From Enterobacter phage phiEap-3, in sequence record KT321315.1: DNA of 64,000 bases; one strand, written 5' to 3'. The notes below the pieces were generated by a model. It ran no database searches and had not been told where the DNA came from. It saw only the letters and a list, made by a program, of their open reading frames with translations. Shown piece by piece: positions 35,086 to 48,033 of the stretch (its first letter is position 1; the number at the start of each line of letters is the position of its first letter). The position numbers and the translations under genes were made by a program.

Positions 35086-35276
35086 TGTTAGAAAGAGAAT
35101 TTGAATTAGAAACCGCTCCAGAAATAGAGAGGTTTTATCTCCACAACAATTTTCTTGAAGAAAAACATATAGTTACTATGAGAGATGTTGAGGAAGCATT
35201 CAAAAATAATCCTATAGAGTTGACGCGAATCAAGAACAACAAAAGTTCTGTTTGGTTCCTCGAAAAAATCTATTGA
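35085..35276 (+). CDS. small hypothetical protein
   Basis: 63 aa; ATG overlaps the gp46 stop; followed by a terminator. Confidence 0.4.
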   Translation: MLEREFELETAPEIERFYLHNNFLEEKHIVTMRDVEEAFKNNPIELTRIKNNKSSVWFLEKIY

Positions 35277-35302
35277 CCGAAATCCATAAATACAGTAAAG
35301 TA

Positions 35303-35336
35303 GCCCATGTAACGAAACGTGGGCTTTGTTTTTATT
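35303..35336 (+). terminator. rho-independent terminator
   Basis: AGCCCATGTAACGAAACGTGGGCT followed by TTGTTTTTATTTGAGG; a similar T-run/Shine-Dalgarno block recurs at 37098. Confidence 0.6.
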
Positions 35337-35349
35337 TGAGGAACAATAA

Positions 35350-37059
35350 ATGATCACCGAATCCAAAATGACTTATCAGGAAGCACTGAAAGTTTTGGGC
35401 GCAACTGGTAGCGAAACCAGCGCTGAAATGTCCAGACTCTTCAAACGTGCATCCTTACGCAATCACCCCGACCGTGGTGGTAGCAATGAATTAATGCAGA
35501 AAATCAACCAGGCTTACGATGTCGTTACAAAAACTGGGCCTAGTGGCGCACGTTCTGAGACTGCTGGTGATGTTCGCGCACGTTATGCCCGTCAAAAGAA
35601 AGAATGGGAAGAAAAAGTTGATGCTTACTTTGTAGTGGCGAAAAACTATTTCAGCACCAAATTTAACGCACAGGAATTTGCGGAATACTTCACCAAATAC
35701 ACTGGATTGCCTACCACTTTCAAACAGGAAGTAACAAAAGGTAGTCACGGTGTTTATGCTTCGTTCCGTTTCACTTCTGGTGATGCTTACTTTGATTTCG
35801 GTTTCAACTGCACCCCTCCTAATGGACAAGGGTTAGCCGCACCGGATTCATCTGCACTGGGTAGCGTTTCTGTTAGTACCTTTGTACTGGTTGGAACTAA
35901 AAAACACAAAATGGCAAGCCGTGATTATCAATGGGGCAAAAACCCAGACAAGATCACTCCGGAAAGCCTGTTCCCGTCTAAAAAACTGGAAAGCATTTTC
36001 AGCCCTGTACAGAAAAATATCAAATACAAACGTGCTGACTACCTGGCGTCATTCCGTAAGCTGTTAGGCGCTGACGTTAGCGGAAACGATATCTTTGTTG
36101 AAGTTGGTACACTGAAAGTTCGTTTCTATCGTCACGTATTCATGCGCAAAGGTGCTTATGTGTTTAGCGCGGTGTATGATCCTGCTGTATCTAAGTATCG
36201 TCCGGCTGCACAACTTCGCGGAACCATGTTCGAAGACGAAGACGGTGCTTGCCTGGATATGATCGTTGATACGTTCAAAGAGTTGCAGAAACTGAAACCG
36301 AGTGTTCAAGGCGTTGTGAACGCTATCGATAAGATGAACGCAGAGTTTGCAGCGGGACATCGTTCAGCATCTTTTGTTAAACGTGTAGCTGCTCAGGAAG
36401 CCGCGCCGAAGCCAGAAGAGAAGCCAAAACGCACTGTTAATCGTATCGGTAAAGAGGAATACTTCGCAGCACTAAAAGATATTGGTGCTCGTGTAATGCC
36501 TACCAGCGGTTATGTTGAATTTGATAACGGCGCTGGTGTTACTATCAACTTCAAGCGTATTGTTGTAAACCGTAAAGCATACTACTCATTCAGTAGCTTT
36601 GATTTCATGTACTCTGGTCAGAAACACATTGAGTGGTTGAAAGGAATCGATATCGCAGAAGATACCAAAGGAGCAAGCATTAGCCTACTCACTGATACTC
36701 TGAAATCTTTACGTGGGATCTCTGACTGGAACACTGTTAAGAGCGCTTTAGATCAAATGAATTCTAACTTCAAAGCGGGTAAATTCTCCGCACCTCATGT
36801 GAAGAAGGAAGCAGAGCAAAAAGCACCGAAACAGAAAGACGAAATCGGCGCACAGCCTACCAAACCACAGGCGGCTAAGAAAGATACACCGGAAGTGGAA
36901 AAATCACAGGCTGTTCATGCAGCACGTGAGAAAGCGAATATGAACAACACTATTCGTAAAATGATGACTATGTTAGTCAAAGCACAGCGTAAAGACACTC
37001 CGGAAGATATCAAGAAGGAAGTTGATGCAGCAATTCAATTGTGGCGCTTGACTTACTAA
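35350..37059 (+). CDS. J-domain (DnaJ-like, HPD motif) protein with internally repeated C-terminal modules
   Basis: N-terminus YQEALKVLG...LRNHPDRGG...KINQAYDVV is a canonical J domain; modules repeat (e.g. LKPSVQGVVNAIDKMNAEFAAGHRSASFVKR versus LRGISDWNTVKSALDQMNSNFKAGKFSAPHVKK). Confidence 0.8.
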   Translation: MITESKMTYQEALKVLGATGSETSAEMSRLFKRASLRNHPDRGGSNELMQKINQAYDVVTKTGPSGARSETAGDVRARYARQKKEWEEKVDAYFVVAKNYFSTKFNAQEFAEYFTKYTGLPTTFKQEVTKGSHGVYASFRFTSGDAYFDFGFNCTPPNGQGLAAPDSSALGSVSVSTFVLVGTKKHKMASRDYQWGKNPDKITPESLFPSKKLESIFSPVQKNIKYKRADYLASFRKLLGADVSGNDIFVEVGTLKVRFYRHVFMRKGAYVFSAVYDPAVSKYRPAAQLRGTMFEDEDGACLDMIVDTFKELQKLKPSVQGVVNAIDKMNAEFAAGHRSASFVKRVAAQEAAPKPEEKPKRTVNRIGKEEYFAALKDIGARVMPTSGYVEFDNGAGVTINFKRIVVNRKAYYSFSSFDFMYSGQKHIEWLKGIDIAEDTKGASISLLTDTLKSLRGISDWNTVKSALDQMNSNFKAGKFSAPHVKKEAEQKAPKQKDEIGAQPTKPQAAKKDTPEVEKSQAVHAAREKANMNNTIRKMMTMLVKAQRKDTPEDIKKEVDAAIQLWRLTY

Positions 37060-37075
37060 TCAAATGAACTATAAT

Positions 37076-37106
37076 GGGAACTGTTAACGCAGTTCCCTTT
37101 TTATTT
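37076..37106 (+). terminator. rho-independent terminator
   Basis: GGGAACTG-TTAACG-CAGTTCCC followed by TTTTTATTTGAGG. Confidence 0.6.
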
Positions 37107-37118
37107 GAGGAAAATATT

Positions 37119-37409
37119 ATGAGTTGTCCAACATGGTTACGTTTGGAAAATCTGAAAGAAGGTACACAAAAACGGATTTATATTAATCTTGGTTGGGTTC
37201 CGCCTACAGATTTTCAAATGGCTGAGATTTTAATCAATGCTGTTAAAGAAGTAAGCGACACTTACGAATGGGAAAGGCTCTATTTTCCTTTGATTGGTTT
37301 GTATATGACGCGAAATAAATTTGAAGAAATGAAACTTGCTGTTATTCGCGCTACGATTATTAATTCCCAACAAAGATTTACTTTGAAAAATGCATGGAGT
37401 TCTGAATGA
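37119..37409 (+). CDS. hypothetical protein
   Basis: start moved to MSCPTW, downstream of a terminator T-run and GAGG Shine-Dalgarno. Confidence 0.45.
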   Translation: MSCPTWLRLENLKEGTQKRIYINLGWVPPTDFQMAEILINAVKEVSDTYEWERLYFPLIGLYMTRNKFEEMKLAVIRATIINSQQRFTLKNAWSSE

Positions 37410-46903: not shown

Positions 46904-47180
46904 TCATCCTGGCTCTATGAGCATGGTTCTCCTGGAAGCATTAAAGGCATATGATATCCCTTGTCATTTCGGTGAAGTAACTGTTAATACTATCGTTGAC
47001 GAAATCGACAACCCAAATACTTTCATTGCTTGTCTTGTTCGAAAATTCACAAGTTGTTTTCGTCCGAGTCCAGAAAAAGTAGTAATTAGTTCTGTTTCTG
47101 CACATCATCGAGTGTTGGATGATGGAAAGATTCAAGTTTACTGGAAAGTTCTTTATCACGTGGTATATCATGAAGATTGA
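46896..47180 (+). CDS. hypothetical protein
   Basis: 94 aa ORF. Confidence 0.45.
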   Translation: MLDHPGSMSMVLLEALKAYDIPCHFGEVTVNTIVDEIDNPNTFIACLVRKFTSCFRPSPEKVVISSVSAHHRVLDDGKIQVYWKVLYHVVYHED

Positions 47181-47676
47181 TGATATTATGTTTATGCTTA
47201 GAGCGGTAAGCGCTTCTAAGTTCTCTCAATGTGTCTCTGTTAATGTCGGTGCTGCGTTGAGAAATGGTAACGGGCGTGTGTTTGTAGGCGCAAATAATAC
47301 GGTTGATCCTAGTCATCGTTGTACAGATCAGTGCAATCACTTATTAGATGATAACGGGAAACTGAGTGAAGAAAAGCGCCCTGAACATTCACAATGGTCA
47401 GATCGCAACGAAGTACACGCAGAAATGCGCGTTATTATGCTGGCGGCGTCTCATGAACAAATCAAAGACGCAACTTTGTATACAACTCATTCCCCTTGCT
47501 CACAATGTGCGAAAAATATCGAATTTTGTGTTGCAACAGGTATGATTAAGCGTGTAGTATATCTACATAAATACGATCGTGGTGGCATCGAGTGGATATG
47601 GCGTCTACAGCAATACGGTGCCGAAGTAGTACAACTTGACCCCGAAGAATTGAATAAACATTTTCGGATCAAATAA
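47170..47676 (+). CDS. cd: dCMP deaminase
   Basis: HAEM and SPCSQCAK zinc-binding deaminase motifs; start moved to MKIDDIM. Confidence 0.85.
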   Translation: MKIDDIMFMLRAVSASKFSQCVSVNVGAALRNGNGRVFVGANNTVDPSHRCTDQCNHLLDDNGKLSEEKRPEHSQWSDRNEVHAEMRVIMLAASHEQIKDATLYTTHSPCSQCAKNIEFCVATGMIKRVVYLHKYDRGGIEWIWRLQQYGAEVVQLDPEELNKHFRIK

Positions 47677-47679
47677 CCA

Positions 47680-48033
47680 ATGAGTAAATGTATGTCTGAA
47701 CTGAGTGTAAAAGCATCCTTTGAATATGTCCTGATTGAAACCAACGCTAAAGCGGCTGGAACTGAAATTGTATCACCTTCTGGTATTGTGACTGGTGTTC
47801 GTCAACACGGCGAGGAACCGATCTACGGCACAGTGTTATCATGTGGGCCGGATGTACCGGAAGAATATAAAACCCTGCTTATGGGTAAGCGCGTACCGCT
47901 TCCTCATGCACAAATGGCAAACGTGCCGGATCCTGAACTGATTGCAGGAAAGGCAACAAAAGAAGAAGCTCGCAAGTATCCGGTTAAATATGTAACCGCA
48001 CACTATAAAGCGATTCAAGCAATTTACGAATAA
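47680..48033 (+). CDS. 31: GroES-like co-chaperonin
   Basis: 117 aa; C-terminal AHYKAIQAIYE matches T4 gp31 CHYKAIPCLYK, with mobile-loop-like region; sits near cd as in T4. Confidence 0.8.
   Translation: MSKCMSELSVKASFEYVLIETNAKAAGTEIVSPSGIVTGVRQHGEEPIYGTVLSCGPDVPEEYKTLLMGKRVPLPHAQMANVPDPELIAGKATKEEARKYPVKYVTAHYKAIQAIYE

Follow-up and report, generated by a model that had tools for sequence, protein, structure and literature searches.

The question raised by this locus is what a large phage protein that begins like DnaJ does during infection. The locus lies in a 64,000-nucleotide (nt) stretch of Enterobacter phage phiEap-3 (sequence record KT321315.1), hereafter the window, in which positions 35350 to 37059 of the plus strand encode a 569-amino-acid (aa) protein with an ATG start; a GAGGA Shine-Dalgarno sequence (35338-35342) is found 7 nt before the ATG. 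At 98-99% nucleotide identity to KP15, KP27, and Miro, the window can be assigned to a KP15/KP27/Miro-type Klebsiella phage (Slopekvirus). Several Slopekvirus proteins have exactly the sequence of the 569-aa protein (100% identity). Among its orthologs are KP15 gp055 (99.3% identity) and Rki16 of phage RB16, and it matches phrog_7739 from end to end (positions 1-565 of 565). Judging from the orthologs that have been studied experimentally, the gene probably encodes a full-length Rki-family type III J-domain protein like those of other RB43-like and KP15-like T4-type phages, one that is produced early and engages DnaK and sigma-32 as those orthologs do.

The original prediction, made from the DNA sequence, placed a canonical J domain in the first ~70 residues, and our profile and structure comparisons agree with it. 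The J domain (residues 1-70; 35350-35559, plus strand) consists of helices at residues 9-16, 24-37, and 46-62, with the HPD tripeptide (residues 39-41; nt 35464-35472) between helices II and III. We used an alignment of 21 homologs, and the profile built from it, for the J-domain and conservation tests. Searched against the PDB, this profile matched solely J domains, always over residues 6-69, including those of Tim14 (2guz_A, E=7.5e-9) and E. coli DnaJ (5nro_B, E=5e-8), and Foldseek aligned the AlphaFold model with Tim14 2guz_A at a TM score of 0.75 and a probability of 1.0. K32 and H39-P40-D41-R42 are invariant (21/21 homologs), most homologs carry a precomputed PF00226 assignment, and the J segment is 76% identical to the J domain of RB43, the one known to be functional from experiment. 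The AlphaFold model shows at most a weak helix IV in the J domain, as has likewise been remarked for Rki (PMC3486835). The N-terminus is a genuine HPD J domain, and its resemblance to DnaJ is not incidental.

The J domain gives way to a long helix that is not G/F-rich, the zinc-finger motif CxxCxGxG is found in no ORF (open reading frame) of at least 40 aa in the 64 kb of the window, and neither the profile search against the PDB nor Foldseek identified a DnaJ C-terminal client-binding domain beyond residue 69. Lacking a G/F region, a zinc finger, and client-binding domains, the protein is therefore classed as a type III J-domain protein. RB43 carries small ORFs that resemble the DnaJ zinc finger (ORF179c/191c); counterparts in this phage may be located outside the 64 kb.

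AlphaFold predicted the full protein with a mean pLDDT of 80 (82.6 for residues 221-502) and resolved it into several modules. The N-module, including the long helix (35563-36027, plus strand), is the counterpart of the C-terminal domain of RB43 Rki; it comprises the long helix at residues 72-104 and, within residues 107-216, a helix (107-118), six strands (122-194), and short helices. The pLDDT in this region is mostly 80-93, and identity to RB43 is 76-83%. Repeat 1 (R1; residues 228-357; 36031-36420, plus strand) contains a helix, a six-stranded beta sheet, and three helices, and repeat 2 (R2; residues 368-487; 36451-36810, plus strand), which is confined to the long-form lineage, has the same topology; the linker between them (residues 351-364) is predicted with low confidence. 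A predicted disordered linker rich in K/E/A/P/Q (residues 488-518; 36811-36903, plus strand; pLDDT <50) leads to a C-terminal helical hairpin (residues 519-569; 36904-37056, plus strand) formed by helices 516-546 and 551-568 at pLDDT 80-92, and this hairpin is kept in the long-form homologs.

R1 and R2 are copies in a tandem duplication of ~125-130 residues, in which residues 228-357 align to residues 368-498 with 35% identity over 127 aligned residues. The Smith-Waterman score of the two copies was 132, compared with 33.7 +/- 5.6 for shuffles (z=17.7), and HHalign aligned the R1 and R2 sub-alignments over 117 columns with a probability of 99.1% (E=4.9e-19). The internal repeat modules seen in the original prediction are thus real, if longer than described there: the two peptides it quoted are the C-terminal helices of this duplication, and the recurring YxF/beta-rich block is the beta-sheet of each copy. 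Residues 76-227 were also considered as a third repeat and rejected, as Smith-Waterman comparisons to R1 and R2 gave z=-0.6 and 0.9 and the HHalign probability was <1%; these residues nonetheless resemble the repeats in the order of their secondary structure, a helix followed by six strands. Beyond the J domain, Foldseek searches of the PDB returned weak PUR/MRP/Mediator-type matches, whereas the BFVD search recovered family members only (RB43 058w and the J-proteins of Aeromonas phages 65 and 65.2). R1 and R2 have an alpha+beta make-up for which PsiB-like, frataxin-like, or RWD-like sandwiches are candidate folds, with no superposition reaching significance.

According to the original prediction, the repeat architecture differs from that of the smaller J-domain protein Rki of RB43. 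This part of the prediction did not hold. RB43 057w (Rki, 237 aa) and 058w share a reading frame and are split by a TAA at codon 238; read through this stop, they encode the same 565-aa architecture and align with 73% identity over all 569 residues (TBLASTN, with two coding sequences annotated under the match). The RB16 Rki16 protein, which is uninterrupted like that of KP15, is 73.5% identical to the 569-aa protein. In the window, the codon aligned to the RB43 stop is codon 242 (GAC, Asp; 36073-36075, plus strand), 14 residues into R1. As the RB43 stop is inside R1, RB43 therefore makes the J domain and N-module only. The annotated start of 058w is an internal Met in an R1 strand, and nothing upstream of it resembles a Shine-Dalgarno sequence.

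A single nucleotide separates RB43 from Citrobacter phage CfP1 in the 1698 nt of the rki-058w locus: at nt 712 (codon 238), RB43 has T and CfP1 has G, as does RB16. Of the 60 sequences that match the RB43 locus best, only three are split, and all three are RB43 records. Because the stop-making T is the sole difference between RB43 and CfP1 in this locus, the long form (565-570 aa) is the normal one. We infer that the 237-aa Rki of RB43 is a very recent nonsense allele, a derived state of the stop being well supported by these alignments, and that the RB16 and KP15 proteins are not fusions. A comparison of dN/dS between the window and phage Lw1 gave ~0.13 before and ~0.12 after the position of the RB43 stop, ratios that are approximate given that synonymous sites are near saturation (pS 0.56-0.72). 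These values indicate that the whole ORF is under purifying selection and that the part past this position has a function in the phages that retain it.

Three further records match the gene in pieces or in part. Klebsiella phages CPRSA and CPRSB match the 569-aa protein in three and two pieces, respectively, with three coding sequences under the match (OM971648.1, OM971649.1), and KMI7 (MN101221.1) covers just 44% of it. Either disruption of the gene or faulty assembly may account for such matches.

Perrody et al. (2012; PMC3486835) described KP15 gp055 (D5JF99), like RB16 Rki16, as an Rki-ORF058w "fusion," so a Rki-type protein in this group of phages had been published before and the gene is a known one. 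Our additions are incremental: a delimited repeat, evidence that the RB43 stop is derived, an outline of how broad the family is and what its core contains, and flanks that resemble promoter-early stem-loop (PeSL) cassettes. Our search found no literature from 2013 onward specific to the fused form.

The functional case comes from experiments on the RB43 and RB16 proteins, all reported in one study (PMC3486835). RB43 Rki is an early, cytoplasmic protein that binds DnaK in vivo, as assessed by pull-down, and stimulates the DnaK ATPase through its HPD motif; the H38Q substitution causes loss of function. In vitro it is not a generic co-chaperone, and it cannot replace DnaJ. Residues 76-237 of Rki form one protease-resistant domain that is required for toxicity. 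Rki associates with sigma-32 in a DnaK-dependent manner and blocks the FtsH-dependent turnover of sigma-32; the stabilized sigma-32 yields more heat-shock proteins, including GroEL, and a better phage yield. RB43 with a delta-rki mutation grows poorly, and this defect is suppressed by dnaK mutations or by extra sigma-32. Rki16 is uninterrupted, is made during RB16 infection (western blot), and is active and less toxic. On the strength of these tested orthologs, RB43 Rki and RB16 Rki16, redirection of DnaK, which the original prediction had proposed, would be the best-supported function of the 569-aa protein.

By analogy, the 569-aa protein would be expressed early, engage Klebsiella DnaK via its J domain soon after infection, and stabilize sigma-32 in the infected cell. 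The extension formed by R1, R2, and the tail may moderate or redirect the activity of the J-protein. The resulting increase in GroEL could then serve the gp31-dependent folding of the major capsid protein. The partner in this last step is encoded in the window, outside the J-protein locus: the ORF at 47680-48033 (plus strand) matches T4 gp31 over its full length (1g31_A, E=5.1e-16) and falls in phrog_931 ("head morphogenesis"), and the GroES-like gp31 that the original prediction recognized at 47680 is thereby supported. A link between GroEL, gp31, and the J-protein, also discussed by Perrody et al. (PMC3486835), has some plausibility but is weak, given the poor rescue of delta-rki by GroESL overexpression.

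Several observations weigh against a Rki-like role for the 569-aa protein. Taken alone, its sequence scored 20.9 bits against the Pfam DnaJ family (PF00226), below the gathering cut-off of 27.8, and a Pfam scan of the full protein returned nothing beyond this sub-threshold match. Foldseek found no significant fold match in the PDB outside the J domain, leaving R1, R2, and the tail without a functional assignment; for the C-terminus of 058w, Perrody et al. likewise noted weak PTZ00121-type similarity alone (PMC3486835). The experimental record concerns the RB43 and RB16 orthologs, not a KP15-type protein or Klebsiella. The strong experimental phenotypes come from the truncated form in RB43; Rki16 stabilizes sigma-32 and complements delta-rki "considerably less efficiently," and overexpression of GroESL suppresses delta-rki weakly (PMC3486835).

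We searched 1.84 billion representative sequences with a profile of residues 86-502, leaving out the J domain, and recovered 289 clusters. Almost all of these proteins are ~346 aa long (median 346) and match through R1 only. A J domain is present directly upstream of the match in 133 of the 147 distant relatives examined, and 130 have HPD. The short-form relatives, which are ~34% identical over residues 7-274, fall in phrog_13942, and one of them occupies the same slot after genes 47, 46, and 45.2. The family core consists of the J domain, N-module, and R1 and is widespread in phages. Pseudotevenvirus, Slopekvirus, and a few others carry in addition R2, the disordered linker, and the hairpin as a lineage-specific extension.

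Two relatives depart from this pattern. Compared with Aeromonas phage 65.2, Aeromonas phage 65 has one inserted G where R1 begins, at the conserved motif K(K/R)ADY, and the frameshift splits the 337-aa J-protein into ORFs of 244 aa and 64 aa at nearly the same domain boundary as in RB43; unless it is a sequencing error, this is possibly a second, independent truncation at the boundary of N-module and R1. In phages 65 and 65.2, the J-protein gene follows gp3 and a dNMP kinase gene, not gene 46, and a tRNA-Leu gene is located directly downstream of it. The other relative is a distant 1442-aa polyvalent protein, in which a J domain and Rki-type module occupy residues 975-1266, near the end of the protein; it also has 2'-5' RNA-ligase-like, SprT-like, and ART-PolyVal (ADP-ribosyltransferase) domains, an effector-type context.

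The extension could make the natural protein a two-part DnaK adaptor, although the odds are well short of even: R1, R2, and the hairpin might bind a second partner and restrain toxicity, with RB43 Rki as a recent nonsense hypermorph. The second partner is speculative. If the protein is such an adaptor, the published RB43 phenotypes would overstate or misdirect the role of the protein in wild phages.

An alternative is that the long protein is mainly a targeted co-chaperone, which would deliver DnaK through R1-R2 and the C-terminal hairpin to a specific client or site, either a phage or a host protein and possibly one bound to nucleic acid; toxicity and the stabilization of sigma-32 would then be side effects, for the most part, that truncation in the RB43 allele has exaggerated. 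The purifying selection on R1, R2, and the tail, which is as strong as that on the J domain, fits this explanation, as do the conservation of the J domain, N-module, and R1 as a core in 289 clusters, the origin of the RB43 stop in one recent nucleotide change, and the report that full-length Rki16 is far less toxic and acts more weakly on sigma-32 (PMC3486835). R1 and R2 also show resemblances to PsiB and PUR/MRP-type folds, but these are weak and non-significant. However, Rki16 still stabilizes sigma-32 and complements delta-rki, and 058w supplied in trans has no effect (PMC3486835). On balance, we consider a targeted co-chaperone unlikely.

Still less probable, in our assessment, is that the protein is a DnaK blocker or counter-defense effector, which would lock or titrate DnaK and so switch off a host process harmful to the phage, the rise in sigma-32 being a mere consequence. 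RB43 grows better on some dnaK mutants, dnaK mutations suppress delta-rki, and Rki does not behave as a generic co-chaperone in vitro (PMC3486835), all of which would fit a blocker, and the 1442-aa polyvalent relative provides an effector-type context. Yet that relative is a single sequence without genomic context, no defense system is linked to DnaK here, and extra sigma-32 alone fully suppresses delta-rki, a sign that the output that matters is sigma-32 itself (PMC3486835).

A virion or structural protein with an incidentally J-like N-terminus, the outcome that the original prediction had allowed for should the repeats adopt a known virion fold, is effectively refuted: although the identical gene is labeled "tail protein" in one record (PP889503.1), the J domain is significant at both the profile and the fold level, the fold matches of the repeats include no virion fold, the gene has an early-type promoter and is in the early region, and RB43 Rki is early and cytoplasmic (PMC3486835).

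Our preferred reading, an early Rki-type J-domain protein, is also consistent with the sequence upstream of the gene. A pattern scan identified an early-type promoter on the plus strand (35273-35301), with a -35 box TTGACC (35273-35278), a 17-nt spacer, and a -10 box TAAAGT (35296-35301), and an A-rich, UP-like stretch lies upstream of it. This region aligns column for column with the sequences upstream of rki in RB43 and Lw1, and both boxes are invariant. The RB43 rki early promoter has been described as TTGACA/TAAAGT with an UP element, and both its transcript and protein are early (PMC3486835).

The hairpin AGCCCATGT-AACGAA-ACGTGGGCT and its T-run (35302-35335, plus strand; hairpin plus T-run site at 35302-35325) begin 1 nt past the -10 box. 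A hairpin with a different stem sequence occupies the matching place in RB43 and Lw1. Toward read-through from genes 46 and 45.2, the hairpin is terminator-like, whereas a transcript from the adjacent promoter would miss most of its 5' arm; given its start 1 nt after the -10 box, it may stop read-through but not transcripts from the adjacent promoter. A second hairpin (37076-37097) follows the gene within a downstream cassette (37048-37112, plus strand) that begins with TTGACT-16-TATAAT (37048-37075). The KP27 record annotates both flanking hairpins as terminators, in agreement with the original prediction that terminators flank the gene, and annotates a promoter and a terminator at the downstream cassette.

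Both flanks also carry the 14-nt sequence TTTTATTTGAGGAA, which includes a T-run and a Shine-Dalgarno sequence. Its first copy is at 35330-35343 (plus strand) and its second, which ends the downstream cassette, at 37099-37112; no other exact copy occurs in the 64 kb, and the two bracket the gene. We also considered TTTTATTTGAGGAA as a common intergenic motif and rejected this, because exact copies are limited to the two flanks and looser matches occur at chance level. The second copy carries the Shine-Dalgarno sequence of the next gene, with its ATG at 37119. A mechanically called ORF for that gene (37074-37409) starts inside the -10 box/hairpin; the KP27 annotation and the Shine-Dalgarno sequence in TTTTATTTGAGGAA favor the ATG at 37119 (37119-37409, 96 aa, phrog_5175).

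The gene order in the window is 47, 46, a gp45.2 homolog, the J-protein gene, three small ORFs, frd, td, and nrdA. The slot between gene 46 and frd named in the original prediction is therefore confirmed, with the gp45.2 homolog and three small ORFs intervening, and the same slot (47-46-45.2, rki, small ORFs, frd-td-nrdA) is found in RB43 and KP27. In Lw1, a mobE homing-endonuclease gene on the opposite strand is inserted between gene 46 and gp45.2, just upstream of rki; this insertion is missing from the window and from RB43. Elsewhere in the window, just upstream of gp31, an ORF at 47119-47676 (plus strand, 185 aa) has in its translation the zinc-site signature HAE...PCSQC of cytidine/deoxycytidylate deaminases and is presumably a homolog of T4 cd.

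KP15-like phages are widely used as candidates for Klebsiella therapy, and a practical gain from this analysis is the correct annotation of the gene in these phages. Most GenBank records of the gene label it "hypothetical protein." Under the gene match, PP889503.1 has the label "tail protein," PV833086.1 "small t antigen," and PP889464.1 "dihydrofolate reductase"; these look like annotation errors. To our knowledge, Rki is the only experimentally characterized family of phage J-domain proteins. The scientific gain is a modest reframing of this family, in which a 565-570-aa protein is normal, RB43 Rki is a truncation, and the core is widespread in phages.

Compared with known systems, the 569-aa protein shares with the type I/II proteins DnaJ and CbpA of E. 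coli the J domain, the K-R of helix II, and HPD-R, but not their G/F region, CxxCxGxG zinc finger, or client-binding domains. By both sequence and fold, residues 6-69 are most like the J domains of the type III proteins Tim14/Pam18 and polyomavirus T-antigen, which have an HPD(K/R)GG loop; outside the J domain, nothing in them is related to the 569-aa protein, and with cellular J-domain proteins in general it has no other region in common. The flanks of the gene are like the PeSL cassettes, which recur at the borders of variable genes in T4-type phages and have been suggested to shuffle them (PMC2839356, PMC4122927), in that a sigma-70-like early promoter is joined directly to a hairpin on both sides and the 14-mer is identical; those papers treat phages other than KP15 and RB43. 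Within the family, the short-form phage J-proteins (phrog_13942; 337-338 aa in Aeromonas phages CC2 and 65.2) share the J domain, N-module, and R1 in a single ORF, whereas R2, the disordered linker, and the C-terminal hairpin are absent from them. RB43 Rki (ORF057w, Q56BZ1) and ORF058w (305 aa) share collinearity, the HPDRGG loop, the early promoter boxes, and the neighboring genes, but unlike the 569-aa protein they are split by the TAA at codon 238. The closest counterparts are RB16 Rki16 (UniProt D9ICB9, RB16p058) and KP15 gp055, which represent the same gene, uninterrupted at 565-569 aa and with the same locus and domain order; Rki16 differs in being 4 residues shorter, in the linker after the J domain, and in the host of its phage, which is E. 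coli for RB16 and Klebsiella for the 569-aa protein.

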